A DNA stretch of 64,000 nt from an uncultured Granulosicoccaceae bacterium (GTDB taxonomy: Bacteria; Pseudomonadota; Gammaproteobacteria; CALCKW01): contig CALCKW010000006.1 of assembly GCA_937965695.1 (NCBI GenBank), positions 37,717-101,716 of the forward strand. Direction: 5' to 3'. Position numbers and translations under genes: made by a program. The notes under the pieces were generated by a model that saw only the letters and a program-made list of their open reading frames with translations, did no database searches and had not been told where the DNA came from. Shown in pieces: positions 26,169 to 63,959 of the stretch. How positions within the stretch are numbered: position 1 is the stretch's first letter; each line of letters opens with the position of its first letter.

Positions 26169-27583
26169 CAACACTCCCCACTCAGCTACAACATGATTTG
26201 CAAGCTCTCGCAGGTGAAGGTGGATATCGCGATGCCACTGAAAGAGATGTCACAGAAATGCGGGGCCGTTACCGCGGCGGCAGTACATTGGTATTACGCC
26301 CGAAAACCACAGAGATTGCTGCCGCGATAGTGAGCCGTTGCGCTGAAGCTCAACTGCCAATCATCCCTATCGGTGGGGCTACTGGGCTAGTGGCAGGGCA
26401 TATCGCGAGTGAGAATCAAACTGGCGTGCTTTTATCCACCGAACGTCTGGTCAATATCCGCGAGATAAATTCAACAGATCGTCAGTTGGTCGCGGAAGCG
26501 GGTGTGATCCTCGCGAACGTACAGGCAGCCGCCACAGCAAAGGATTTACTGTTTCCACTCAGCCTAGCTGCTGAGGGCAGTTGTACTATTGGTGGCAACC
26601 TATCTACTAACGCCGGCGGTGTACAAGTACTCCGCTACGGTAATACACGCGATCTCGTGCTCGGTGTGGAAGCCATAATGCCAAACGGTGAAATACTCAA
26701 CGGCTTGTCACCTTTGCGAAAGAATAACACCGGCTATGACATTAAAAACTTACTCATAGGCGCTGAGGGTACACTGGGCCTAATAACAGCGGCATCTCTT
26801 AAGCTGTACCCGTCGATAAAAGACAGCTGCACAGCATTGTGCCCCGTCGCTTCGCCAGCAGCCGCACTTGCACTTCTTAGCCAACTACAGCATGAACTAG
26901 GAGAGTTCATCAGCGCTTTCGAGCTAATTTCTGGCCAAGGTTTGCATTTTTTGCGAGAGCACTTTCCACAACTGCCACAAGCTATTTCACCTCCGCCTGA
27001 ATGGTCAGTAGTCTTGGAGCTAGGAAGTAGTGCAGAAAACGAATTAAAAAAATTAGCAGAAAGCGCACTTACGAAGGCAATTCAAAAGGACCTGATTCTC
27101 GATGCGGTCATCAGCCAAAGTGAAACACAGCGCCAACAAATCTGGAGTCTGCGTGAACATATTCCGCTGGCGAATAAAAAAGTTGGCGCAATCGTCAGTT
27201 TCGATATCAGTCTTCCGCTTAGCAAACTGGCACTCTTCATAAAAACAGCTGTGCCCAAAGTACAAGATTTTGATGGCAATCTTCGTATTAACTGCTTCGG
27301 TCATGTGGGCGATGGCAATCTGCATTTTAACGTATTTCCACCGATCGATAAGTTAGCGTGTAACTACCGTTCGCAACAAACGGAAATCAGATCGGCTGTT
27401 TATGATCTAGTACAGAAGATGGGGGGATCTTTCAGCGCAGAGCACGGAGTTGGCAGAGATAAAGTTTCAGAGCTTTTACAGTATGGAGACCCAACAAAGC
27501 TAGAGGTCATGGCTTCAATTAAAAAAGCATTGGATCCGAATGGAATTTTTAATCCCGGTGCAGTGATTGATCCGCGAAAATAA
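26165..27583 (+). CDS. FAD-linked oxidase (GlcD / D-lactate / D-2-hydroxyacid dehydrogenase family)
   Basis: 472 aa. PCMH-type FAD-binding N-terminal domain (LVLRPKTTEIAAAIVSRCAEAQLPIIPIGGATGLVAGHIA) with a C-terminal FAD-oxidase domain. GTG start overlaps the LysR stop (GTGA). Confidence 0.75.
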   Translation: MTTLPTQLQHDLQALAGEGGYRDATERDVTEMRGRYRGGSTLVLRPKTTEIAAAIVSRCAEAQLPIIPIGGATGLVAGHIASENQTGVLLSTERLVNIREINSTDRQLVAEAGVILANVQAAATAKDLLFPLSLAAEGSCTIGGNLSTNAGGVQVLRYGNTRDLVLGVEAIMPNGEILNGLSPLRKNNTGYDIKNLLIGAEGTLGLITAASLKLYPSIKDSCTALCPVASPAAALALLSQLQHELGEFISAFELISGQGLHFLREHFPQLPQAISPPPEWSVVLELGSSAENELKKLAESALTKAIQKDLILDAVISQSETQRQQIWSLREHIPLANKKVGAIVSFDISLPLSKLALFIKTAVPKVQDFDGNLRINCFGHVGDGNLHFNVFPPIDKLACNYRSQQTEIRSAVYDLVQKMGGSFSAEHGVGRDKVSELLQYGDPTKLEVMASIKKALDPNGIFNPGAVIDPRK

Positions 27584-27589
27584 AAAAAA

Positions 27590-28609
27590 TTACTCCGGAC
27601 TTGCCTTTTCTTCACCCGAAGAAATACTCATGCCCGCAGCGCGTCTGCGCTCATCACGAGGCGGCAAACCATAGACGTCGCGATAGCATTTGGAAAAATG
27701 AGGCGCTGAAATAAAACCGCAGGCCAAAGCAATATCAACAACGGGCATACTGGTTTGGAGAAGCAATTGCCTCGCCCGCTCAAGTCTAAGCTCTAAATAA
27801 TAACGAGTGGGGACACAGCCTAGGTATTTTTTAAAAAGCCTTTCCAATTGCCGGCGTGATAAACCAATATGATGAGCCAGTTCGCTAAGCGTCATTGGTT
27901 CTTCGATATTGGCCTCCATCAAAGAGACGGCTTCTGTCAGTCGGGGTTGCGAATTGCCAATACGATGTTTCAACGGCATGCGTTGACGGTCTTGATTTTC
28001 ACGCACCCGATCACAGATGAGCAAGTCAGAAACGCTGTTTGCAATTGTAGCGCCCTGCTGCTCGCGCACCAGGTGCAACATCATATCAAGGGGTGCTACC
28101 CCACCTGCACATGTGTGGCGGTCTCGGTCAATTTCGTATATGGATGAGGACAAAACCAGCGCGGGAAATTCTTCTCTCACACTAGCCATGTTTTCCCAAT
28201 GGATAGTGCATCTGTAGCCGTTCAATAACCCTGCCCGCGCTAGCAGATAAGAGCCCGTGCAAATTCCTCCAAGCACTAATTTTCGTTCAGCCATTTTGCG
28301 CAGCCAACCGAGGGTAAAATTATTCGCTGATCGTTGAACCCCTTCGCCGCCACAAACATAAAGGACATCCAGTGCTGGAACAGTCGCGGTACTGCAGTCG
28401 ACAGCGAGCTCAACACCCGCGCTAGAACTGACTGCTGTGCCATCAGACGAAATCAGGTGCCACTCGTAAAGTGTCGAAGCTGCGGTGCGGTTGGCGGCAC
28501 GCAAGGTATCGAGAGCCACCGACAATGACATGAACGTGAAATCCGGCACCAGAAAGAAGCCTACACGTAAGATCGGCTGCGCCGAAGGGTCATTCACATT
28601 CAAAGCCAT
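27590..28609 (-). CDS. AraC-family regulator with N-terminal DJ-1/PfpI (class-I glutamine amidotransferase-like) domain, GlxA/GbdR/CdhR type
   Basis: RVGFFLVPDF…ICTGSYLLARAGLLNGYRCTIHWEN is the DJ-1/PfpI-like part. The C-terminal AraC HTH is LSELAHHIGLSRRQLERLFKKYLG. Start set at MALNV. Confidence 0.75.
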   Translation of the reverse strand: MALNVNDPSAQPILRVGFFLVPDFTFMSLSVALDTLRAANRTAASTLYEWHLISSDGTAVSSSAGVELAVDCSTATVPALDVLYVCGGEGVQRSANNFTLGWLRKMAERKLVLGGICTGSYLLARAGLLNGYRCTIHWENMASVREEFPALVLSSSIYEIDRDRHTCAGGVAPLDMMLHLVREQQGATIANSVSDLLICDRVRENQDRQRMPLKHRIGNSQPRLTEAVSLMEANIEEPMTLSELAHHIGLSRRQLERLFKKYLGCVPTRYYLELRLERARQLLLQTSMPVVDIALACGFISAPHFSKCYRDVYGLPPRDERRRAAGMSISSGEEKASPE

Positions 28610-28780
28610 TCTCCAGAGCACCTGATGGTTATTAACAGATACCCAACCTTATTTAGCCAACACTTTTAAGTAAGAGGAGCCGAAAAAAGCCCTTCCCATT
28701 GTGACCTTACTGCTAGCGGGATTAGGCAGCATTGTTAGGCTTTTGGCAAGCATTGGTTTAATTATTTCACTCGCCGTCTG

Positions 28781-30337
28781 TCAATAATTTGCATCCGGAA
28801 AACTTGCCTTACGTTCAGCGATAAAAGCTAACAAAGCTTCGTCAACGGCAGGGTCTAATTCTGGGGCTTGGTAGTCAGCTAACATTTGTTTCCAACGGGT
28901 ATTAGCTCGTTGCATCGCATCTTGCGAACCCTCAGATTGCCATTGCTCAAAGCTGTTGTTGTCGGCAACCTTGGAAATGTAAAATGCGTCTTGGAAATTC
29001 TCTTGGGTATGCGCGCATCCAAGGTAGTGGTTCCCAGGCCCAACCTCTTGGTGCGCTGACATTGCCAACCCCTTTTCTGAGAGATCCACCCCGCCCAGAA
29101 ATTTTCCTATCATGCCAGCCTGATCTGCATCCATCACGAATTTTTCGTAGCCCATGACCAATCCGCCTTCCAGCCAACCCGCCGTGTGCAACATGAAATT
29201 CACGCCGGAAAGCATCGCAGTTTGCAACGTATTGGCAGCTTCGTACCCTGCTTGAGCATCAGCAATTTTAGAGGCATTTAGCCCCCCACCGGAGCGGAAT
29301 GGTACACCTAGGCGACGAGCAAGCGAGGCGCAAATGTACATCACTTGGCTTGGCTCAGGCACACCAAAAGTTGGGGCGCCTGACTGCATCGATACAGCAC
29401 TGGCAAAAGTACCAAAGACGACGGGTGAGCCTGCACGAACCAACTGGCAAAAAGCCATGCCAGCCAGCGCTTCAGCCAGAATTTGCGATGAAGTTCCAGC
29501 GACTGTCACCGGAGACATCGCGCCCGCTAATATAAACGGAGAAACAACGCATGCTTGGTTGTTCTCGGCGTAGACCTTAGCAGCACCCAACATGGTGTCG
29601 TCGAAAACCATTGGGGAGTTTGCATTGATTAGATTGATGACGACCGTGCGCTCGACACCCGTCTCGGGGTCCAAATAATTGTCGCCAAACAGTATTTTGG
29701 CCATATCAACCGTGTCTTGCGCCCGCTCGGCCGCTGTGACAGAGCCCATGAAGCACTTATCCGAGTACTTCATGTGGCTATAGACCATATCAAAATGACG
29801 CTTATTGACCGGCAGATCTACAGGCTCACAAACAGTGCCACCAGAGTGATGAATTGACGGGGACAAATAGGCCAATTTGACGAAGTTTTGGAAGTCTTCA
29901 ATAGTGCCATAGCGGCGCCCCCCGTCCATGTCGTAGACAAACGGAGGGCCATAGGCCGGCACTAAAACTACGGCATCACCGCCAATCTGTACGTTTTTGG
30001 CAGGATTTCGCGCATGCTGCGTGAATACACTCGGTGCATTGTCTTGGATGATTTTACGGCACATGCCGCGTGGAAAGCGTACACGCTCACCTTGCACGTC
30101 TGCACCAGCAGCTTTAAACAGCTCTAGTGCCAACGGGTAATCGCGGAATTCAATGCCTATCTCTTCCAGCAGCGTATCAGCGGTCTCTTCTATGGTCTTT
30201 AGGCCAGCTTCATTCAATACCTCATAACAAGGTACTTTTCTTGTGATGTAGGGAGCGGCAGGTGCAACATTGGCCTGACGAGCGCGTCGGTCGGCGCGGC
30301 CACCTGCGCGGCGTCGTTTTGGTGCTGGATCTGTCAT
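28781..30337 (-). CDS. MttB-superfamily methyltransferase (non-pyrrolysine trimethylamine/quaternary-amine methyltransferase homolog)
   Basis: 518 aa. After an Arg-rich N-terminal extension, the segment EVLNEAGLKTIEETADTLLEEIGIEFRD matches the characteristic MttB-family N-terminus of the TIM-barrel methyltransferases. No in-frame stop codon that would indicate pyrrolysine. Confidence 0.7.
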   Translation of the reverse strand: MTDPAPKRRRAGGRADRRARQANVAPAAPYITRKVPCYEVLNEAGLKTIEETADTLLEEIGIEFRDYPLALELFKAAGADVQGERVRFPRGMCRKIIQDNAPSVFTQHARNPAKNVQIGGDAVVLVPAYGPPFVYDMDGGRRYGTIEDFQNFVKLAYLSPSIHHSGGTVCEPVDLPVNKRHFDMVYSHMKYSDKCFMGSVTAAERAQDTVDMAKILFGDNYLDPETGVERTVVINLINANSPMVFDDTMLGAAKVYAENNQACVVSPFILAGAMSPVTVAGTSSQILAEALAGMAFCQLVRAGSPVVFGTFASAVSMQSGAPTFGVPEPSQVMYICASLARRLGVPFRSGGGLNASKIADAQAGYEAANTLQTAMLSGVNFMLHTAGWLEGGLVMGYEKFVMDADQAGMIGKFLGGVDLSEKGLAMSAHQEVGPGNHYLGCAHTQENFQDAFYISKVADNNSFEQWQSEGSQDAMQRANTRWKQMLADYQAPELDPAVDEALLAFIAERKASFPDANY

Positions 30338-33807: not shown

Positions 33808-35004
33808 TCAATAACCGTAGGTGGCAGGCCTACTCGAGCCCTGCAGGTTGCCCTCGCTAGCAATCACTAAAAAACCACCAGCAGCGGTTAGCGATGCGAC
33901 GACGACCAATGCAATTTTTATCTTGCTGTAGGGTCTCTCGCCAAGAACTTTGGCTGTGCGGCCGTTTATAACAAATCGATAATGCTTGCCGCTGAATCTG
34001 AAAGCGGCTGTCCACAGCGGCAGCAATATATGCTTGAAGGTAGTACCGCTGTGGCGCGTATTCACACTGTGAACTCGCTGATAATCGCCACCGATATCCG
34101 CCCGTACATCCGCTTTAATCTTGGCACTCATCACTCGCCTAGCCCGATCAAAACCCTCATCGAGTGGCACTTGATAAACTTCACTGCGCAAGCCACTAAG
34201 GTAGGATTCATCGTAGGGGACCAGCGCTTGTAAATCCCATGGATGCAAGCGATCCGTGATTTGTCGAGGCAGCGTATCGGACGCGCCAATAAGCACGTCG
34301 TCAAAGTGCCGGCCAACTCTGCCGGTCACACGATGCCAACGCACCTTGGGCACTTGTTGTCGGCGCCGAACCCGCCGTCCGTTCTGCACCACTGTCACCC
34401 ATTCACTGACAAAGTAAGTTTCACCACGCTCACCACGATACTGGCTGCTCGTATCGCTGTCATAAGTCCAATAGGGCAAATACACGCCGTTGAGCGATTG
34501 ATCGGCCCGCGCATAACGCTTGAGCTTACTGGGAGCAAACCACAAACTTTTCAACCATTTGCGGTAGGCTTCGCTGGCTTGTTTTTCAGTCACAGCAAAG
34601 GGCAACAACGACTCTGCCCTAAACCTCACCGATTCACCGTCAGTCAAGACTACAGGTGCACTGCAAAAGGGGCATTCTCCCGAGCGTTGTTCCGCGTCGT
34701 AACTGAAATGGGCACCGCAGCTATCACAGCCAATATGCGGTACCTCATTGGTCTGATCAGGCGCGCGCTCTAAAGCAGCCAATGCCTCTCGCAAACTGTG
34801 TTCGCTAATGGTTTGCGTTGATTTTTCAATGGCCTGCTGGTGGTTGCAATAGTCGCAGACCAGCGACTCTTGCCCCACGGCATAACGCAACACAGCACCG
34901 CACTGCTCGCACGGAAAACGTTGCTCTTGCCGTTCATTAATTACGTTTTTTTTGTTCGCCAGATTTTTCTTGGCCGTATCAAAAATACCCAAGGCTTTAG
35001 CCAC
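33808..35004 (-). CDS. Multi-zinc-ribbon membrane-anchored protein (B. subtilis YdjG-like), last gene of the TelA/SPFH stress operon
   Basis: 398 aa. Two N-terminal CxxC…CxxC ribbons (CEQCGAVLRY…CDYCNHQ and CDSCGAHFSY…CPFCSAP). Single C-terminal TM helix (IALVVVASLTAAGGFLVIA). Confidence 0.5.
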   Translation of the reverse strand: MAKALGIFDTAKKNLANKKNVINERQEQRFPCEQCGAVLRYAVGQESLVCDYCNHQQAIEKSTQTISEHSLREALAALERAPDQTNEVPHIGCDSCGAHFSYDAEQRSGECPFCSAPVVLTDGESVRFRAESLLPFAVTEKQASEAYRKWLKSLWFAPSKLKRYARADQSLNGVYLPYWTYDSDTSSQYRGERGETYFVSEWVTVVQNGRRVRRRQQVPKVRWHRVTGRVGRHFDDVLIGASDTLPRQITDRLHPWDLQALVPYDESYLSGLRSEVYQVPLDEGFDRARRVMSAKIKADVRADIGGDYQRVHSVNTRHSGTTFKHILLPLWTAAFRFSGKHYRFVINGRTAKVLGERPYSKIKIALVVVASLTAAGGFLVIASEGNLQGSSRPATYGY

Positions 35005-35069
35005 CCGACAAGTTTGCAGTGTTCAATTTCAGTCCAGAGTGCTTACCTTCAAATGATGAAACACCCCGA

Positions 35070-36170
35070 TCAAGCAGACGGTATCGGTGGTGGCTGTTGG
35101 TCATCAAACAAATCGGCTACCACAGGGGCCTCGTCCGCTCGCATCCATTCGCCCAGAGACTTGTACCACACAAGTGTGTCGGCGGAGAGTTCACCCGCCT
35201 CAACTTGTTGGGTGATTTGAGGCAAAGTAAACGGCCCCGTCGCTGTCCCGTCACGAGCAACATGTACACGCACTACTGGCAACAAGGGCGGAGGAACATC
35301 ACCCTGGCCAAGCACACCAGGGCGCATCATTTGAGTCGCAGCGGCCATACCAACCGCCATGCCCATACCATCACTTGCACCGCCGCTCGGGTTTTCCGCA
35401 GCGGACTGCATAGCGGAGCCAGTTTGCACTTTGATGTACCTATCAAGGTCACCAATAATTCCCATGCTGGTGCGTTTATCCAGTGCCGCTTCTACATCAG
35501 AAGGTAACGAGATATTCTCAACCAAAAGCTTGGTGATTTCGAGCCCGTACTCAGAAAACTCAGGCGCTATTTGAGCGGTGATGAAATCACTGAGCTTTTC
35601 GTAGTTAGCAGCCAAGTCGAGCACGGGAATCTGCGCCTCCGCAACAACGGCGGCAAAACGTGCTGCGATCAGATTACGCAGCTGCTCGCTGATTTCATCA
35701 ACAGAAAACAAACCGTCAGTGCCGACAATTTCACGCAAAAACCGTTCGCCATTATTGATACGCATCACGTAACTGCCAAAGGCGCGCAAGCGCACCATGG
35801 CAAACTCCGAATCACGAATCATCAGAGGATTTCGCGTACCCCATTTTAAATCAGTAAAACGCCTTGTGCTGCAAAAATAAACCTCTGCTTTGAACGGGCT
35901 GTTAAACGCGTGAGGCCACGCTTGTAGAGACGACAACAGAGGTAAATTATTTGTTTCCAGTTCGTACATTCCAGGCTCTAGCACATCGGCTACCTGCCCT
36001 TCGTTGACAAATACAGCCACTTGCCCTTCGCGTACAGTCAGTTTTGCACCGTATTTTATCGAGTTTCCCTGGCGCGGAAATCTATACACTAGCGTGTCGG
36101 AGCTATCATCGGTCCATTCAATGACGTCGACAAATTCGCCAAAGAGCCGATCAAAAAGTCCCATGATCAA
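35070..36170 (-). CDS. SPFH-domain protein with C-terminal GYF-like DUF4339 domain (YdjI/virion-core-protein-like band-7 family)
   Basis: 366 aa. The N-terminal 250 aa match the YdjI-type SPFH fold (…KLTVREGQVAVFVNEGQ…). C-terminus is LPQITQQVEAGELSADTLVWYKSLGEWMRADEAP, the DUF4339 pattern. 4-bp overlap with the upstream TelA-like gene. Confidence 0.65.
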   Translation of the reverse strand: MIMGLFDRLFGEFVDVIEWTDDSSDTLVYRFPRQGNSIKYGAKLTVREGQVAVFVNEGQVADVLEPGMYELETNNLPLLSSLQAWPHAFNSPFKAEVYFCSTRRFTDLKWGTRNPLMIRDSEFAMVRLRAFGSYVMRINNGERFLREIVGTDGLFSVDEISEQLRNLIAARFAAVVAEAQIPVLDLAANYEKLSDFITAQIAPEFSEYGLEITKLLVENISLPSDVEAALDKRTSMGIIGDLDRYIKVQTGSAMQSAAENPSGGASDGMGMAVGMAAATQMMRPGVLGQGDVPPPLLPVVRVHVARDGTATGPFTLPQITQQVEAGELSADTLVWYKSLGEWMRADEAPVVADLFDDQQPPPIPSA

Positions 36171-37342
36171 GCGCTCGTTGAGGGCGCTGCGGCCGCTTCA
36201 GTGCCGTGCGCGCTAGCCGCTTTCAAGGACTCACGCAATTCTCCTTCTAAACGATGCAACTCTGTCTCTGCTTCGGCGCGGCGTCGTTTACCCTCGTCAG
36301 CGATGACAAGACTCTCTTCGATACTGGCCACTAAATTTGCGTGCGCTTTTTTAACAGATTCCATGTCAAATACACCGCGTTCCATCTCTTCACGCACCTG
36401 ACGGTTAGCCGTGCGCAGGTTCTCAGAATTTTTTTCCAACAACTCATTGGTTAAATCGGTCGCGGCTTTAACATCGGTGGCCACTTTCTGAGAGCGATAA
36501 ATACTAACCGCCTGTGCCAACTGGTTACGCCACAAGGGCACCGTATTGACAAGCGTTGTATTAATTTTTGTGATGAGGCCTTTGTCGTTCTCTTGAACCA
36601 TCCGAATACTGGGCAATGCCTGCATCGCAACTTGGCGCGTCAAACGTAAATCATGCACTCGTCGCTCCAGGTCATCACGACGTGCGCGCATATCGCGTAA
36701 GGCCTGAGCTTTGAGCATGTCTTCACCTTCGGCCTCCGCAACAAGCGCAGGAATCAGTGTCTTATCACACTCTTCAAGCTTGGATTCACCCGCGGCGATG
36801 TATAACTCGAGATTATTGAAGTAATCCAGATTGGCGTCATAGAGTTTATCTAAGGAGACGATATCGCGTAGCAGCGTTGTCTTGTGGGACTCAAGCTTAT
36901 CAGTCACTGCGTCAATCTGTGGGCGCACTTCCTCGTATTGTTGAATAAACTGTGCAACAGGCGCAGCCCTTCCCGTAATCCAATTGATAAGACGCGCCAA
37001 AAGACCTGGTTTTTCATTTGGATCAAGGCCTGCCACGTCAAAACCACGAAGTACGCCAACCATTTCGTTGAGGGAATCTCCCGCTGTGCCTAGTTCTTTG
37101 TTTTTTACACCTTCGAGCATACTGTCGGATATTGTTGTCAGCTGCTCTTGAGCTTTGCTGCCAAAAAACAAAATATCATTGCTGTCGTTCATGTTGAGCT
37201 GCGTCTGAAGCTCTTCAATTTTAACCCGCTGTTCTTCGCTGGCAGTCGCTAAGGTGACGGGTTCATCGGCCAATACCATCAAGGTGTGACCGACAATTGA
37301 CTGTTCACTTTGCAGTGTAGTTTCGCTCATTGTTTTCTCCAT
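36167..37342 (-). CDS. TelA-like toxic-anion-resistance protein (TelA/KlaA/YaaN family)
   Basis: 391 aa. Helical protein of TelA length, with conserved family-like segments (…GFDVAGLDPNEKPGLLARL…LYIAAGESKLEE…). Confidence 0.7.
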   Translation of the reverse strand: MEKTMSETTLQSEQSIVGHTLMVLADEPVTLATASEEQRVKIEELQTQLNMNDSNDILFFGSKAQEQLTTISDSMLEGVKNKELGTAGDSLNEMVGVLRGFDVAGLDPNEKPGLLARLINWITGRAAPVAQFIQQYEEVRPQIDAVTDKLESHKTTLLRDIVSLDKLYDANLDYFNNLELYIAAGESKLEECDKTLIPALVAEAEGEDMLKAQALRDMRARRDDLERRVHDLRLTRQVAMQALPSIRMVQENDKGLITKINTTLVNTVPLWRNQLAQAVSIYRSQKVATDVKAATDLTNELLEKNSENLRTANRQVREEMERGVFDMESVKKAHANLVASIEESLVIADEGKRRRAEAETELHRLEGELRESLKAASAHGTEAAAAPSTSA

Positions 37343-37392
37343 TGACTTTTGTCACAGAGCGCATCTCTGTGACTTGGGCATGTCGCTTGATT

Positions 37393-38238
37393 TTAAGCCA
37401 CGCCTTCTCTTTCAAGCTGCATTTGCAGCACTTCAATTTTCACGTCCAGGTCGTCGTGGTTATGTTCCATCAATTTAATCCGCTGCTCTTCAACAACAGT
37501 CTCAATGGTATCGAGCACACGGCGGAAGTTATCTTCGAGCGCCGCGTCATCACCGAGACGGTGCGTGCGAGCGTATCCAGCGACCACTTGCTGGGCACCG
37601 TCTAAATACACCTTTAAAAACTTTCGCGCACGCCGTAAATCAGAAGGCTGATCTTCGATGATATCGAGCAATTCGCGCACGGCAGCGACAATGCGACGCA
37701 ATCGCTGACGTAGTTCGGGTTGTTTAATCTGACGAGCGGATGTTTCAATCGCATCAATACGAGACTCAGCCTCTTCAAGCACATCCAACACTTCTTCTGC
37801 CGTCACACCTACTGCAGATATATCAGGAGAATTTCGTGCCGGATCAAAGCCGTAGCGTAAGTAGTACCCCAAAAAAGTGAAGCCACCATAAATGACCGAG
37901 GTAATGAGCCCATTGCGAGTACCCGCCCAGGCGGCGAGTGTCACGCCAGCACCCAAAACTAGCGCGGCCATTGCCTTGTAAGGCACTGTACTACTGCGTC
38001 TGACTAGTTTGCGACGCAGTGCTTGAGATTCGATCAGCATGCCACGCCGAGAAAGATTGGCGGCTAAAATACAGATGGCGAACGCCACGCCTAACAGAAG
38101 CGCCAACATCCAATGACCGCCGGATAATCGCAATAAAGCAGCCAGCAACAGAGGTAGAGGTAAAAAGTAAAGCAAAAGACCACGGCTATTGGGGTGACCA
38201 CCACGCGCTTTACCGCCATAACGCTTGGCGAGGCTCAT
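37393..38238 (-). CDS. XpaC-like (5-bromo-4-chloroindolyl phosphate hydrolysis protein family) membrane protein
   Basis: 281 aa. N-terminal hydrophobic TM helices followed by a C-terminal charged helical domain. Positioned directly upstream of the TelA-like gene, as xpaC/yaaN are in Bacillus. Confidence 0.5.
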   Translation of the reverse strand: MSLAKRYGGKARGGHPNSRGLLLYFLPLPLLLAALLRLSGGHWMLALLLGVAFAICILAANLSRRGMLIESQALRRKLVRRSSTVPYKAMAALVLGAGVTLAAWAGTRNGLITSVIYGGFTFLGYYLRYGFDPARNSPDISAVGVTAEEVLDVLEEAESRIDAIETSARQIKQPELRQRLRRIVAAVRELLDIIEDQPSDLRRARKFLKVYLDGAQQVVAGYARTHRLGDDAALEDNFRRVLDTIETVVEEQRIKLMEHNHDDLDVKIEVLQMQLEREGVA

Positions 38239-38434: not shown

Positions 38435-39238
38435 CTATCGCTTGGGTAGCAGCCGTTCCAAAACGTATAAACCGCACGCTGGCAGCACGATCGCAGGCCC
38501 TGGAGGCCAATCTAACAGAACGGCCAAGACGATCCCTATCAAACACAGCAGCATGGAAATACAAACCGATCGGCCCACCATGCCAGCAAGCGAGTTCGAT
38601 CGTGCCTCAACCAAAAGCGGAGGGATGGTCATCAGGGCTATCACCAATAACAAGCCGACAACCCGCACCGCCAAAACCACCGTCAAGGCTATTAACACAT
38701 AGAGCACGGGGTAGAAAACATCGGTGGCAACTCCGCGCGCGCGCGCGTATTCCTCCTCGAATGCTACCGCTACCAACAAGGGGTAGAACCCATAAAATAA
38801 CACGCTGACCAAAAGGGCCAAAGCGGCTAGCCAGAGCAAATCATTGGGCTGAATGAGCAACATCGAGCCAAAGAGCCAGACACCTAAATCACCTTGATAT
38901 CCGGGGCTGTACTGCATCAGAACTACACCGAGTGACATACCACCCGCCCATATAACACCTACAACGGCCTCAGTTCGATGCCGTGATCGCCTAGTGGCCC
39001 AACCCATAAGAAGCGCCATCGCAATACTGTAAGCAGCAGTTGTCGGTAGAACAGGTAATGCAAAATAACGCGCTAACCCGACTCCGCCATAGGCAGCATG
39101 GGCGATGCCTCCGGCCACGAAACTTATGCGCTTTACAACCACTAGCGTGCCAATTAATCCGCACAGATAACCCACCAACAAGGCTGCCACAAGCGCCTGT
39201 TGCATGAAGGGTTCAAAGATTAAATCAGTGATCCACAT
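38435..39238 (-). CDS. znuB: Zinc/manganese ABC transporter permease
   Basis: 267 aa, 8-TM ABC-3 family permease. Overlaps the upstream ATPase gene. Confidence 0.8.
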   Translation of the reverse strand: MWITDLIFEPFMQQALVAALLVGYLCGLIGTLVVVKRISFVAGGIAHAAYGGVGLARYFALPVLPTTAAYSIAMALLMGWATRRSRHRTEAVVGVIWAGGMSLGVVLMQYSPGYQGDLGVWLFGSMLLIQPNDLLWLAALALLVSVLFYGFYPLLVAVAFEEEYARARGVATDVFYPVLYVLIALTVVLAVRVVGLLLVIALMTIPPLLVEARSNSLAGMVGRSVCISMLLCLIGIVLAVLLDWPPGPAIVLPACGLYVLERLLPKR

Positions 39239-40010
39239 GGTGCTGATGCTCGATCACTAGATTCGACAAATCACTCAAGTAACAACCCATCGGGCAGGCG
39301 TCGGTATGAACACCATAGATCAAAGCAAGCATCTCTCGGCTTAACTGCGAATCCGCGTTGTAGATGAGACGACTATTGACGCATGCCACACTGTCGACCA
39401 TTGGTGCCGTGACACTGAAGTCGTGGCTGACCATCACCATGGTCATGCGCTTGTGCAAGCGCTCAAGCAACTCATGAAAACAATAGGTACCATCAGGGTC
39501 AATATTGGCGGTTGGCTCGTCGAAAAGTAATATCTCGGGTTCACCAATCAACGCGCGTGCAATGTAAACCCGCTGTCGCTGTCCACCAGACAGTGCTTGG
39601 AAAGATCGCTCAGCTAAATCAGCGATGCCTACTTCTTCCAATACACCAAGAATTCGATCAGCTTGACGCTCACGCACAGAGAATCCGCGGCTTCGTGCGA
39701 CGGGCAAGCCCATGGCCACCACTTCACTCACTCGAATAGGAAAACCAGGCTGATTGAGAATCTGTTGAGGCACGTAGCCTACTCGGGTTCGCGCTTTGCT
39801 GGGCTTTTTACCCAACATACGTACGTCACCCGCGTCTGCATCGATCAGACCGAGCATAACCTTTAGCAATGTCGACTTGCCACCGCCGTTAGGGCCGATC
39901 ACAGCCGTGAATTCGCCCGGTGCCAAGCTCAGACTCACCTTGTCGAGCAGAGCACGTCCATCTCGCATCACACTGACATTGTTTAACTCTATAGCAGGGG
40001 ATTGGATCAT
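39225..40010 (-). CDS. znuC: Zinc ABC transporter ATP-binding protein
   Basis: Walker A (GPNGGGKSTLLK), signature LSGGQRQRV, and Walker B (ILLFDEPT). Confidence 0.8.
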   Translation of the reverse strand: MIQSPAIELNNVSVMRDGRALLDKVSLSLAPGEFTAVIGPNGGGKSTLLKVMLGLIDADAGDVRMLGKKPSKARTRVGYVPQQILNQPGFPIRVSEVVAMGLPVARSRGFSVRERQADRILGVLEEVGIADLAERSFQALSGGQRQRVYIARALIGEPEILLFDEPTANIDPDGTYCFHELLERLHKRMTMVMVSHDFSVTAPMVDSVACVNSRLIYNADSQLSREMLALIYGVHTDACPMGCYLSDLSNLVIEHQHHVDH

Positions 40011-40912
40011 GGTGCTGATAATCCATCTGCCAGTGAAAGCAAGGTAACTTCCCAGTCGTAGCTCAGTGGATTGATCACCAACAATTTAAGCCCTAAATGC
40101 GAGGCCACTGTTTGTGCCTGAGCGCCACCGTGTTGACTGACTACGAAACGAGCACCATTTTTACTTGCGGTTTTCTTCAAGTCGCTCATCTGTCGAATTG
40201 AAGGCAACTTACCTTCGTGTTCAACTGACAGTTGTATCAGTTTAAATTCCTGACAAAACCAACCCCAAGATGGATGGTCAGCCACAATCGTCGACGCGCT
40301 ATCTTTCAGTTTCACGGCAAGTGATTGCTGCAGCGTTTCGACACGTTCCTTGAAGGCATCCATCCGCTCAGAATAATAAGCACGTCCCGAAGGATCCAGT
40401 TGTTGCAACGCTTGGCTCGCCAAAGAGCCCATACGCAGCATCTCTCTAGGTGATGTCCAACGATGCGGGTCTTTACCATCTATCTGTGAGTGATTGTGAT
40501 GTTCGTCGGCTTGAGTGTCGTTTGGTTTTTGCGCTTCTGAAGAACGATCACCTTCTTGTCTTTGATCATCATCACTTTCGTCCAGCCATATCAACTTGTC
40601 GCTGCTGCCCAAGCGCTCACCTAAACCACGTTCAAAGGGTAACCCGACGCCAAAGTAAACATCTGCACCTTTTAGAGCCAAAAGCTGTTTTGGTGTGGGA
40701 TCAAGAGCATGAGGATCGCCATTACTAAGTAGGGTACTCACAATCACGCGTTCACCACCTATCTGGTCGAGTAAATAACGCATCGGATCGATACCTACAG
40801 ATACCTGCAACTGCGCCTGCACAGGCGATGCTAAAACAACAGAGAGGAAAAAAAAGTATCGAAGGAACAACATCGGATAGGTGCTTGATTGAAAACGCCA
40901 ACGGTAACACAA
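40007..40912 (-). CDS. znuA: Zinc ABC transporter periplasmic substrate-binding protein with His/Asp/Glu-rich loop
   Basis: Cluster-9 SBP fold with an acidic His-rich insertion (DESDDDQRQEGDRSSEAQKPNDTQADEHHNHSQIDGKDPH) typical of ZnuA. The start is uncertain; 40873 is an alternative. Confidence 0.75.
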   Translation of the reverse strand: MCYRWRFQSSTYPMLFLRYFFFLSVVLASPVQAQLQVSVGIDPMRYLLDQIGGERVIVSTLLSNGDPHALDPTPKQLLALKGADVYFGVGLPFERGLGERLGSSDKLIWLDESDDDQRQEGDRSSEAQKPNDTQADEHHNHSQIDGKDPHRWTSPREMLRMGSLASQALQQLDPSGRAYYSERMDAFKERVETLQQSLAVKLKDSASTIVADHPSWGWFCQEFKLIQLSVEHEGKLPSIRQMSDLKKTASKNGARFVVSQHGGAQAQTVASHLGLKLLVINPLSYDWEVTLLSLADGLSAP

Positions 40913-41324: not shown

Positions 41325-42011
41325 CTAGTCCCAATGCAAATCACCGACTCGCGTCGTCGATACCGCTTCTATTGTGTTGCCGTCACTATCCAACAAACGT
41401 TTAACCTGTACGTAAAGGTCTTTTGCGGCTACGCGGTTTATATCGTGTCGAGTGACATGGCGGTACGCCTTCCAACTCGACCCCTTAAAGTCAGCTGATG
41501 TGCTTACTCTTATATGCGTAGGCTCCACACCAGATACACGAGTCGCGACATCTACTGTGCCCGCGTGATGGCTATGAGATTTAACATCGATAGAAAGAAG
41601 ATCGAGTGCAGACTTTCCTTGTCCCAGATTGTGCTTTACCGGTGCTAAACAATCTGTCGAGAATTCTCGTTTGTCCAAAGCAACGTAATAAATGATGTCG
41701 AAGTTCCGTGGTGTTTGCTCACGTGCGTAGCTGCCCGAGCCATTACCCGCGACACTCAAAATGAAGTTTCGATGCGGCGTGTCACCGTACATAACCTCAC
41801 CAGCAGCGTCTGTTCGAAGAGCGCCAAAAGCTTGAGGTTGCCCCTTTAAGCCTAGACACACGGCCGCTCCACTCACGGGTTCTAAGGTCTGGGCATCAAC
41901 AACCCTGACTGTGATATTGGCTGCTACCGCAGACTGCCCCACCGCCAACAATGCTGCGGCGATGGTGCCTTGAATTCCTTTCACTAATAAACTGCGTTTG
42001 CTGTCTTGCAT
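41325..42011 (-). CDS. Hypothetical secreted protein with carboxypeptidase-regulatory-like (transthyretin-fold) N-terminal region
   Basis: Signal peptide LLAVGQSAVAANITVRVVDAQTLEPVSGAAVCL…TDAAGEV, which resembles a CarbopepD_reg-like beta-sandwich. Confidence 0.4.
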   Translation of the reverse strand: MQDSKRSLLVKGIQGTIAAALLAVGQSAVAANITVRVVDAQTLEPVSGAAVCLGLKGQPQAFGALRTDAAGEVMYGDTPHRNFILSVAGNGSGSYAREQTPRNFDIIYYVALDKREFSTDCLAPVKHNLGQGKSALDLLSIDVKSHSHHAGTVDVATRVSGVEPTHIRVSTSADFKGSSWKAYRHVTRHDINRVAAKDLYVQVKRLLDSDGNTIEAVSTTRVGDLHWD

Positions 42012-42314
42012 CTTTTTGTACCGGATAGTCGCGGGCCTGCGTTGCCCTTTGAAGTTGACCCGAAGGTAACGAACAGCGAAGAATTAGTTTGTGATTTGCA
42101 TCACACTTTAATTCTCAATTGCAACAACGACCCAAGTGCTTGATCACAAAAACGTTAGCTGTTTCATTCACTGCGTCAATCGATCTCAACTGATGCATAT
42201 TTGAAACAAGAACAACGTGTTTCTCAGTAGTTCCGAAGACATCAGATAACGTAGTAATGCACCATATTCTGATTTTAAGTTGAAAATATACTGGACATCC
42301 AACCACCTATTAAC

Positions 42315-42334
42315 TACTGTTTAACCATACAGCA
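42315..42334. promoter_or_regulatory. LexA (SOS) box, CTGT-N8-ACAG, immediately upstream of the radical-SAM gene
   Basis: TACTGTTTAACCATACAGCA read directly. It matches the gammaproteobacterial LexA operator consensus (TACTGT-N8-ACAGTA) and lies 7 to 16 bp upstream of the candidate start codons. Confidence 0.5.
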
Positions 42335-42340
42335 TTTGAG

Positions 42341-43456
42341 GTGATTGAAATGTTAGATCTCATTGAAAGCAACAAAATCCACCGAGGCCGAGGGGCAACG
42401 AGCAATGCGACCGGCCGCTTTGAGCCCTATCAAAGTGTTGCCTGCAACGATGGCTGGGAACCTCAAAATGAAACGAAGCTGCGCACCGAGTGGCTGCCTG
42501 ATCGCGCAAAGACAATCATTACCCGCAACACATCACCCGACATCCCATTTGACCGGTCTATCAACCCTTACCGAGGTTGTGAGCACGGTTGTGTTTATTG
42601 TTACGCCCGCCCAAGTCATACCTATCTTGGCCATTCTGCGGGTTTAGATTTCGAATCGCGACTCTACGCCAAACAGGATGCTGCCGCACTACTGCGACAA
42701 GAGCTGAAGAGACCTAGCTATCAGTGCAGCCCTATCGCATTGGGTGTCAACACAGACGCTTATCAACCTTTGGAGCGTAAACTAAAAATAACGCGCCAAT
42801 TGCTCGAGCTAATGGTGGAAACACGGCATCCGGTCATGCTAATCACTAAATCGGCCCTCATTGAGCGCGATCTTGATCTCCTGCAAGATTTGGCCAGTGA
42901 GAACTTAGTTTCAGTAAGCATCAGCTTGACGTCTTTAGATCCCAAGCTTTCGAGCCAATTAGAGCCCAGAGCAGCGTCTCCTCGACGAAGGCTTCGCTCT
43001 TTGGAAACACTCAGTAACGCTGGGATACCGACCCGTTTGTCTTTGGCCCCAGTCATTCCTGGTCTCAATGAGAATGTTTTAGAGGCCATCGTGCGTGAGG
43101 CTGCAGATGCTGGTGCCAGCAGTGCAAACTATTTACTGCTTCGTTTGCCGCTTGAGGTGCAGCAATTATTCATTGACTGGTTACAGCAACATTACCCACT
43201 GCGAGCAAATCGAATTTTGAATGCTATTGCTGATTGTCGGGGTCAATCCGTAATACCTGAAGGTGACAAACGAAAACTGAACGACAGTCGTTTTGGTCAT
43301 CGAATGCGAGGAAAAGGCCCTCGAGCTGCCTTAATTCACCAGCGATTTAATCACGCCTGCAGAAAATATGGCTTACAAGCAGACGAAAGGCATTTGGCTC
43401 TAAATGCTCAAAGCTTTAGGCGACCTAGTGACGAGAGGCAACTTGCTTTAATCTAA
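42341..43456 (+). CDS. Radical SAM protein of the DNA-repair photolyase / SplB-like PA0069 family (COG1533)
   Basis: CxxxCxxC radical-SAM motif in RGCEHGCVYCYARPSHTYLG. About 370 aa. The ATG at 42350 may be the true start. Confidence 0.75.
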   Translation: MIEMLDLIESNKIHRGRGATSNATGRFEPYQSVACNDGWEPQNETKLRTEWLPDRAKTIITRNTSPDIPFDRSINPYRGCEHGCVYCYARPSHTYLGHSAGLDFESRLYAKQDAAALLRQELKRPSYQCSPIALGVNTDAYQPLERKLKITRQLLELMVETRHPVMLITKSALIERDLDLLQDLASENLVSVSISLTSLDPKLSSQLEPRAASPRRRLRSLETLSNAGIPTRLSLAPVIPGLNENVLEAIVREAADAGASSANYLLLRLPLEVQQLFIDWLQQHYPLRANRILNAIADCRGQSVIPEGDKRKLNDSRFGHRMRGKGPRAALIHQRFNHACRKYGLQADERHLALNAQSFRRPSDERQLALI

Positions 43457-43572: not shown

Positions 43573-43605
43573 GCGTGATTCCTATCTGGAATCACGCTTT
43601 TTTAC
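43573..43605 (+). terminator. Rho-independent terminator after the radical-SAM gene
   Basis: GCGTGATTCC-tatct-GGAATCACGC is a perfect 10-bp stem, followed by TTTTTT. Confidence 0.55.
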
Positions 43606-43721
43606 ATGAAAAGCATTAAATTGATGATAATTTTTAAAATTATTGCTGTTGTTTCTTGAGATTACGCATACACTAGTCACCGCAGATAACTGCGAAAACA
43701 CAAAAAAGAGTTTAGTAAAAA

Positions 43722-43928
43722 ATGAGTAAAGGTACAGTCAAGTGGTTCAACGCCGACAAAGGCTTTGGTTTCATCGCTCCAGAAGATGGCGGTAAAGACC
43801 TCTTTGTCCACCATTCAGAAATCAAGAATGGCGGCGGCTTCGCAACCTTGAACGACGGTCAAGAAGTTGAATACGTCGAAGGTGAAGGCCAGAAAGGGCC
43901 CTGCGCAACCAACGTTGTGGCTGTCTAA
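43722..43928 (+). CDS. cspA: Cold-shock protein, CspA family
   Basis: 68 aa. [18 protein letters not shown]…DLFVHHSEI has the RNP1 and RNP2 motifs. Preceded by a long AT-rich 5' region. Confidence 0.9.
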
Positions 43929-43964
43929 TTTAGTCGGTCTAACTGACTAGAATAAAGACACAGG

Positions 43965-63882: not shown

Positions 63883-63959
<77 letters not shown>

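Follow-up and report, generated by a model that had tools for sequence, protein, structure and literature searches.

The radical-SAM gene splB (COG1533) is under LexA control in several bacterial phyla, with published cases from Actinobacteria, Alpha-, Beta- and Gammaproteobacteria, Verrucomicrobia and Bacteroidetes. EMSA experiments have proven this regulation in Verrucomicrobia and demonstrated LexA binding in O. terrae and V. spinosum (PMC4951493). An association between LexA and splB has additionally been described for Alpha- and Betaproteobacteria (PMC3323433) and for Bacteroidetes (PMC8565304), and a LexA ChIP-seq peak has been reported at Rv2578c of M. tuberculosis (PMC3381160). The gene has been proposed as a core element in the SOS response (PMC3323433, PMC4951493, PMC8565304, PMC3381160), and published work also ties SplB-like radical-SAM genes to SOS modules by their gene neighbourhood. 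In Pseudomonas aeruginosa, PA0069 is listed as one of 15 SOS genes (Cirz, 2006, as cited in bioRxiv 10.1101/2022.03.14.484287 and PMC4951493).

The locus described here lies in the window, i.e., the whole 64-kb stretch of DNA that was analysed, and contains a PA0069-family gene with a LexA-like palindrome, TACTGTTTAACCATACAGCA, in front of it. The link between LexA and the PA0069 family is already published, and the locus is an ordinary orthologue with the regulation that has been described. Most probably, TACTGTTTAACCATACAGCA is a functional LexA operator that represses a monocistronic PA0069-family gene, a reading to which we assign a probability of about 0.88. The features of the locus are given below, in the order in which they occur.

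42289–42308, + strand: weak LexA-like site TACTGGACATCCAACCACCT, 10.7 bits, third best match of the window, with the conserved CTGGACA block as left arm.
42292–42297, + strand: putative −35 hexamer TGGACA, 5/6 matches to TTGACA, invariant in five relatives.
42315–42320, + strand: putative −10 hexamer TACTGT (TAnnnT core), equal to the left arm of the operator, proposed from spacing and conservation.
42315–42334, + strand: predicted LexA (SOS) operator TACTGTTTAACCATACAGCA, 20.8 bits with the position weight matrix (PWM), with conserved arms and family-wide enrichment.
42338–42343, + strand: Shine–Dalgarno sequence GAGGTG, as read from the letters, with 8 nt from the end of GAGG to the ATG.
42350–43456, + strand: gene for a PA0069-family radical SAM protein of 368 amino acids (NF033668), with the CX3CX2C motif at C77/C81/C84 (CEHGCVYC).
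43573–43603, + strand: intrinsic terminator, consisting of a 10-bp GC-rich stem (43573–43597) and TTTTTT (43598–43603), predicted from folding and covariation.

The start of the gene at the ATG at 42350 agrees with the public gene calls of an identical protein of 368 amino acids, and 43456 is the last base of the stop codon, so that the coordinates of the preliminary description are correct. In the mechanical list of open reading frames the start is a GTG at 42341, which lies inside the Shine–Dalgarno sequence. The protein matches the NCBIfam model NF033668 (PA0069 family radical SAM protein) over profile positions 1–347 of 348 and scores 481.7 bits, well over the curated cutoff of 360 (E 1.2e-144). 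The sister model NF038135 (Rv2578c) is matched with 211.7 bits, which is under its cutoff of 430, and PF04055 (Radical_SAM; 63 bits) is the only Pfam domain. The three cysteines of C77-x3-C81-x2-C84, located in NPYRGCEHGCVYCYARP, show no variation among 21 homologues. Protein identity amounts to 57–60% with Granulosicoccus-like relatives and to approximately 51–53% with the orthologues of Pseudomonas.

The preliminary description labelled the protein as SplB/PA0069 family. The PA0069 half of this label is borne out by the NF033668 score, but membership of the SplB family by sequence had to be rejected. Among the NCBIfam matches of the protein at E ≤ 1e-3 there is no model for spore photoproduct lyase (SPL), and the SPL chains in the PDB were retrieved neither by phmmer at E ≤ 1 nor by a profile of 21 sequences at E ≤ 10, both of which returned generic radical-SAM segments only. 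The fold search alone led to SPL. With the AlphaFold2 (AF2) model of the protein (pLDDT 73.7, pTM 0.75) as query, the top match in the PDB is the SPL structure 4fhc (E 8e-7, TM 0.54/0.57, 345 aligned columns, 14% identity), so that SPL represents the nearest solved fold. Judged by this model, the protein is a member of the PA0069 family that is SPL-like in fold only, the resemblance being remote.

The core of the operator, CTGTTTAACCATACAG (42317–42332), is the sole exact match to CTGT-N8-ACAG in the 64-kb window. The LexA box that had been placed a few bp before the start of the gene is indeed an exact CTGT-N8-ACAG, but the distance between the 3′ end of the operator and the ATG is really 15 bp. 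In dinucleotide-preserving shuffles the bare core occurs on average 1.01 times per 64 kb, and at least one copy is present in 65 of 100 shuffles. As this frequency is about that of chance, the bare-core match was dropped as evidence, and a PWM for the complete 20-mer was used instead. This PWM is a symmetrised 20-bp log-odds matrix based on an approximate list of 30 LexA operators of E. coli, after the compilations of Lewis (1994) and Fernandez de Henestrosa (2000).

With this E. coli matrix, a gamma-type LexA being assumed for the lineage, TACTGTTTAACCATACAGCA scores 20.8 bits. It outscores 19 of the 30 operators from which the matrix was built, the scores of which range from 12.3 to 26.6 bits with a median of 20.2. 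Its heterology index is 4.9, compared to 1.0–10.2 for the operator set. The runner-up site in the window, at 27231–27250 within a glcD-like open reading frame, reaches 11.3 bits; besides TACTGTTTAACCATACAGCA the PWM found nothing above that value, and hence no further SOS operators, in the 64 kb. None of 100 random first-order-Markov sequences of 64 kb contained a site of 20.8 bits, the highest random score being 17.6. The score of the 20-mer is far above chance. Thus, the motif holds up when scored with a PWM, as it falls inside the range of verified operators and is the top site of the 64-kb window.

Conservation of the site was studied in four public contigs, which share the gene order of the window and encode orthologues with 77–81% protein identity. 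This shared order consists of a Trm112/YcaR-like gene, a divergent gene for a hypothetical protein of 220–230 amino acids, the radical-SAM gene and usually csp. When the upstream intergenic regions are aligned, the columns reach an average identity of 62%, the greater part of the alignment being scrambled. The block 42312–42333 is nearly invariant: 42312–42323 (AACTACTGTTTA), 42326–42327 (CA) and 42329–42333 (ACAGC) are the same in the four syntenic relatives, and variation is confined to three positions of the spacer. Fixed arms around a free spacer are the pattern of an operator for a dimeric protein, and not that of a hairpin. Apart from this block, the sole long run without variation is CTGGACA, at 42291–42297. 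L088 and L089, two relatives at a greater distance (63–65% identity), have otherwise unrelated upstream DNA but keep the LexA boxes, as TACTGTTTTTATATACAGTT (26.0 bits) at −36 and TACTGTATATCCATACAGTT (24.3 bits) at −37; the box in the window is found at −35. Altogether, the boxes of all six relatives score 20.7–26.0 bits and are located at −35 to −41 from the start codon.

The two invariant blocks also indicate where the promoter may be situated. The spacer between TGGACA and TACTGT measures 17 nt, and TGGACA-17-TACTGT probably is the promoter of the gene, as suggested by conservation and spacing. With only 8 of 12 matches, this combination is not returned by a consensus promoter scan, which gave no + strand promoter adjoining the box, either in the window or in L085. 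For L089, the scan gives a promoter with 9 of 12 matches, TTGATT-17-TATACT, the −10 hexamer of which overlaps the first 4 nt of the L089 box. Downstream of the box, GAGG- or GGAGG-like motifs are present at the same place in the relatives.

The conserved CTGGACA block is part of TACTGGACATCCAACCACCT, which may represent a second operator, auxiliary or degenerate, or else no more than the −35 region. If LexA were to occupy both the strong box and this upstream site, TACTGGACA..., over the −35 hexamer, cooperative binding could lead to tighter repression and late induction. We consider such an arrangement rather unlikely, although several observations fit it. The upstream site ranks third among all PWM matches of the window and its left arm is invariant. 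The equivalent sites in the relatives score 7.8–16.0 bits, with 16.0 bits in L085, and a full CTGG-N8-ACAG is present in L086. However, the 10.7 bits of TACTGGACATCCAACCACCT stay under the weakest operator of the E. coli matrix (12.3 bits), and the critical G is missing from the right arm of the site, CCAC. The −35 hexamer accounts for the conservation of TGGACA equally well, and the centre-to-centre spacing of 26 bp would put the two sites on roughly opposite faces of the helix. Moreover, the block is missing in the more distant L088 and L089. Repression by LexA from the strong box TACTGTTTAACCATACAGCA remains the preferred reading.

The association of the gene family with LexA motifs was determined by scanning one genome per GTDB species. 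From 599 confirmed stretches, the best 80 were taken, which belong to Alpha-, Beta- and Gammaproteobacteria, and for each locus a region of 290 bp was searched, from −250 to +40 relative to the start of the tblastn match. CTGT-N8-ACAG is present upstream in 18 of these best 80 loci (22.5 kb), compared to 3 matches elsewhere (421 kb), an enrichment of approximately 113-fold; the carriers among the best 80 of 599 are seven Pseudomonas species, Burkholderiaceae and other Betaproteobacteria. In the seven Pseudomonas species, the tblastn match starts at query residue 12, and the exact box precedes this start by 49–58 bp. The alphaproteobacterial LexA motif GTTC-N7-GTTC is found, in Alphaproteobacteria, upstream of 36 of the best 80 loci, and 15 times elsewhere (approximately 45-fold). 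Taken together, an exact LexA box of the type appropriate to the class precedes 54 of the best 80 orthologous loci, with 45- to 113-fold enrichment. Near-exact boxes of the gamma type (23.5–23.6 bits) occur in L002, a Chromatiales MAG that is the closest among the GTDB matches listed (57% identity), and in L054, and three alphaproteobacterial loci have a box with one mismatch or a slightly more distant one.

A recognisable LexA box is absent in about 20 of the best 80 loci. They come from Stenotrophomonas, Rudaea, Lysobacteraceae and Solimonas as well as from several gammaproteobacterial MAGs without classification; Xanthomonadales-like loci and these MAGs make up most of them. A regular expression for a Xanthomonadales-type LexA motif gave 0 matches in the box-less loci of Stenotrophomonas, Rudaea, Lysobacteraceae and Solimonas. 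Regulation of the family by LexA would therefore be frequent but not universal, or the box-less lineages use other motifs.

These data also bear on the question whether the palindrome could be a chance match, or the site of another dimeric regulator, with a gene that is not under SOS control in this lineage. Such a reading draws on the chance-level frequency of the bare core, on the box-less quarter or so of the best 80 orthologous loci and on the absence of lexA from the annotated genes, which cover about 26–55 kb of the window and do not include recA or recN either. It is nevertheless very improbable. The score of the 20-mer far exceeds random expectation, and six relatives have unchanged arms, equally far from the start codon. 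Another regulator is contradicted by the orthologues of Alphaproteobacteria, which bear a wholly different motif, of the alpha LexA type, at this place, as is expected only if LexA is what has been conserved. LexA regulation of members of the family has been published as well (PMC4951493, PMC3381160). The type of operator thus switches with the class of the host while its position is kept, which points to LexA itself as the conserved regulator, and this class-wise switch is the strongest available argument for LexA in that role.

The least credible alternative, with a probability close to negligible, is that a hairpin of RNA or DNA, formed by the inverted repeat, has a function in the 5′ leader instead of an operator, e.g., as an attenuator or stability element. 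The repeat does lie within or beside the predicted 5′ UTR, where a stem of 4–6 bp might arise, but this stem is very short with a loop of 8 nt, the arms never vary and so display no covariation while the loop or spacer changes freely, a search of Rfam gave no match at the site even at E ≤ 1, and the agreement with the LexA consensus extends past the pairing positions into the TAC...GCA flanks.

With TACTGTTTAACCATACAGCA read as a LexA operator, the question becomes which genes it would control. The terminator stem begins 117 nt past the stop codon, and 6 of its 10 pairs are GC. Its folding energy is −18.3 kcal/mol, compared to −6.2 ± 2.1 for shuffled sequences (z = −5.8). In an alignment of five sequences, compensatory double changes are seen in 5 of the 10 stem pairs. 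L086, a relative that has no csp gene downstream, retains the terminator. The clean hairpin terminator that was said to follow the gene is thus present, with its z-score of −5.8 and its compensated pairs, although it is found at some distance and not immediately behind the gene. The stretch from the stop codon to the hairpin contains only short open reading frames of 23–37 codons, and the gene upstream is divergent and begins 304 bp from the box. The covarying terminator, the short reading frames in front of it and the divergent upstream gene all support the earlier proposal of a single-gene SOS unit. The neighbours are ordinary chromosomal genes, for NudE, a YejABF-like transporter, SohB, FolD and GbdR.

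In general, SOS genes are derepressed after DNA damage by RecA-stimulated autocleavage of LexA. For the locus in the window, a model along these lines can be proposed. A sigma-70-type promoter, probably TGGACA-17-TACTGT, would drive the PA0069-family gene, and the predicted high-affinity operator at 42315–42334 would cover the −10 hexamer as well as the point where transcription is expected to start. In an undamaged cell, a bound LexA dimer would cover the region from −10 to about +7 and thereby exclude RNA polymerase. Upon DNA damage, RecA-ssDNA filaments would stimulate self-cleavage of LexA, the operator would be vacated, and the derepressed gene would be transcribed as far as the intrinsic terminator at 43573–43603. 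SOS control, as put forward in the preliminary description, is strongly supported, because the PWM score, the position in the putative promoter, the phylogenetic footprint and the co-occurrence of the family with class-specific LexA motifs all agree with it. It is from the sequence alone that we infer LexA binding and induction by damage at this locus.

The product is predicted to be a [4Fe-4S]/S-adenosylmethionine enzyme, with the spore photoproduct lyase as nearest solved fold. Most likely, a 5′-deoxyadenosyl radical generated by this enzyme would reverse or process some DNA lesion directly, without light. As LexA control of the family recurs across phyla, the enzyme is a candidate for direct-reversal repair. 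A more specific proposal is that PA0069-family enzymes carry out light-independent, radical-based direct reversal of a DNA lesion that occurs in vegetative cells and is distinct from the spore photoproduct, and that in this lineage late SOS induction through a dual operator comes on top of this; in this complete form we regard the proposal as speculative and improbable. The substrate in non-sporulating bacteria, which the preliminary description brought up, is an already recognised question: in the literature searched, no paper was found on the biochemical characterisation or the substrate of the PA0069 family.

As to the significance of the locus, the gene can be annotated as a LexA-regulated (SOS) PA0069-family radical-SAM gene, presumptively at least, in an uncultured gammaproteobacterium. 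The boxes in 54 of the best 80 loci, with a motif type that follows the class of the host, offer comparative support for the published idea of a widespread family near the core of the SOS response. The question of lesion and substrate has been recognised before, and PA0069 or Rv2578c in culturable models are at least as tractable for answering it. What novelty is left concerns the chemistry of the enzyme and the possible second operator; in other respects the locus is like the orthologues described and represents one more test case.

Several known systems can be compared with this locus. At the level of the operator, the closest counterparts are those of sulA and ftsK (dinH) in E. coli, which we take to be TACTGTACATCCATACAGTA and TCCTGTTAATCCATACAGCA, respectively, and which are very similar to TACTGTTTAACCATACAGCA. 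The sulA operator overlaps the −10 region. The genes downstream of these operators are different ones, and E. coli is not known to have a PA0069-family gene.

At the level of the protein, SplB (PDB 4FHC) shares the partial TIM barrel of radical-SAM enzymes, with a near full-length match to the AF2 model, and the C-x3-C-x-Y-C-Y stretch of the protein presumably resembles the CX3CX2C region of SPL with its flanking tyrosines. In contrast, sequence identity with SplB is 14%, and the host is a non-sporulating Gram-negative bacterium, without the context of A-form, SASP-bound spore DNA. The regulation differs as well: SplB is under the control of sporulation sigma factors, whereas at the PA0069-family gene LexA would take this place.

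The genes annotated as splB (COG1533) in other phyla, as well as Rv2578c, belong to the same orthologous group and have the same arrangement of one radical-SAM gene behind a LexA operator. The splB clades differ in the LexA motif, e.g., GTTC-N7-GTTC in Alphaproteobacteria (the 36 loci among the best 80), and Rv2578c is described by the sister model NF038135, which the protein studied here matches below the cutoff. Finally, the locus differs from PA0069 in its host, an uncultured marine-type gammaproteobacterium, but the two have the protein family (NF033668), the bacterial class and the CTGT-N8-ACAG type of operator in common.

Upstream of the predicted LexA box that precedes the radical-SAM gene of the PA0069 family, a conserved block is found, and a second gene starts in the opposite direction:

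42289-42308, plus strand: conserved block ACTGGACA, at a distance of 26 bp from this box
41325-42011, minus strand: gene for a 228-aa protein, transcribed divergently from the radical-SAM gene

With a symmetrised matrix built from E. coli LexA operators (the LexA PWM), the ACTGGACA block is the third-ranking match in the window at 10.7 bits. Its counterpart reaches 16.0 bits in the relative L085, and that in L086, another relative, is a full CTGG-N8-ACAG. The block may represent an additional, weak operator, or merely the -35 hexamer.

Among the best 80 of 599 orthologous stretches, approximately one quarter of the orthologues in the PA0069 family lack a recognisable box of either type (CTGT-N8-ACAG or GTTC-N7-GTTC) within 300 bp upstream (loci L004, L030, L033, L037 and about 16 others). 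The taxa concerned include Stenotrophomonas, Rudaea, Lysobacteraceae, Solimonas, a Methylococcales MAG and several unclassified gammaproteobacterial MAGs. Either a different LexA motif is used in these bacteria, or the link with the SOS response has been lost.

The start of the divergent gene lies 304 bp from the LexA box, and each of the six relatives examined has this gene beside its radical-SAM gene. The N-terminus of the encoded protein resembles a signal peptide. Searches of Pfam and NCBIfam gave no match for this protein; its counterpart in one relative has a weak match to CarboxypepD_reg.

Further genes in the window are the following:

27590-30337, minus strand: adjoining GbdR-like regulator and MttB-superfamily methyltransferase homologue
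33808-38238, minus strand: four consecutive ORFs (398, 366, 391 and 281 aa), searched against NCBIfam
38435-40912: AztABC/ZnuABC-like metal ABC transporter
43722-43928, plus strand: CspE-like cold-shock gene (PF00313; NF049933 at 101 bits, below cutoff)
63886-63959, minus strand: tRNA gene (Rfam RF00005, 64.4 bits)

The four ORFs are located just upstream of the transporter; none of them matches an NCBIfam model at E <= 1e-3. Throughout the 64 kb, the tRNA gene is the only Rfam match above its gathering score. A sub-threshold match to the Rfam cspA thermoregulator, running off the 3′ end of the stretch searched, precedes the CspE-like gene (40.1 bits, E = 2.3e-8; gathering score 78). Of the four close relatives, three share conserved blocks of the 5′ UTR of this gene, among them the small hairpin CGCAGATAACTGCG. 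These features lie within 43626-43950 on the plus strand.

The GbdR-like choline/betaine regulator scores 453 bits, just under the cutoff of 480, and the methyltransferase homologue 246 bits against TIGR02369, well under the cutoff of 525. The latter is unlikely to be a true trimethylamine enzyme; a non-pyrrolysine quaternary-amine methyltransferase is the probable identity.
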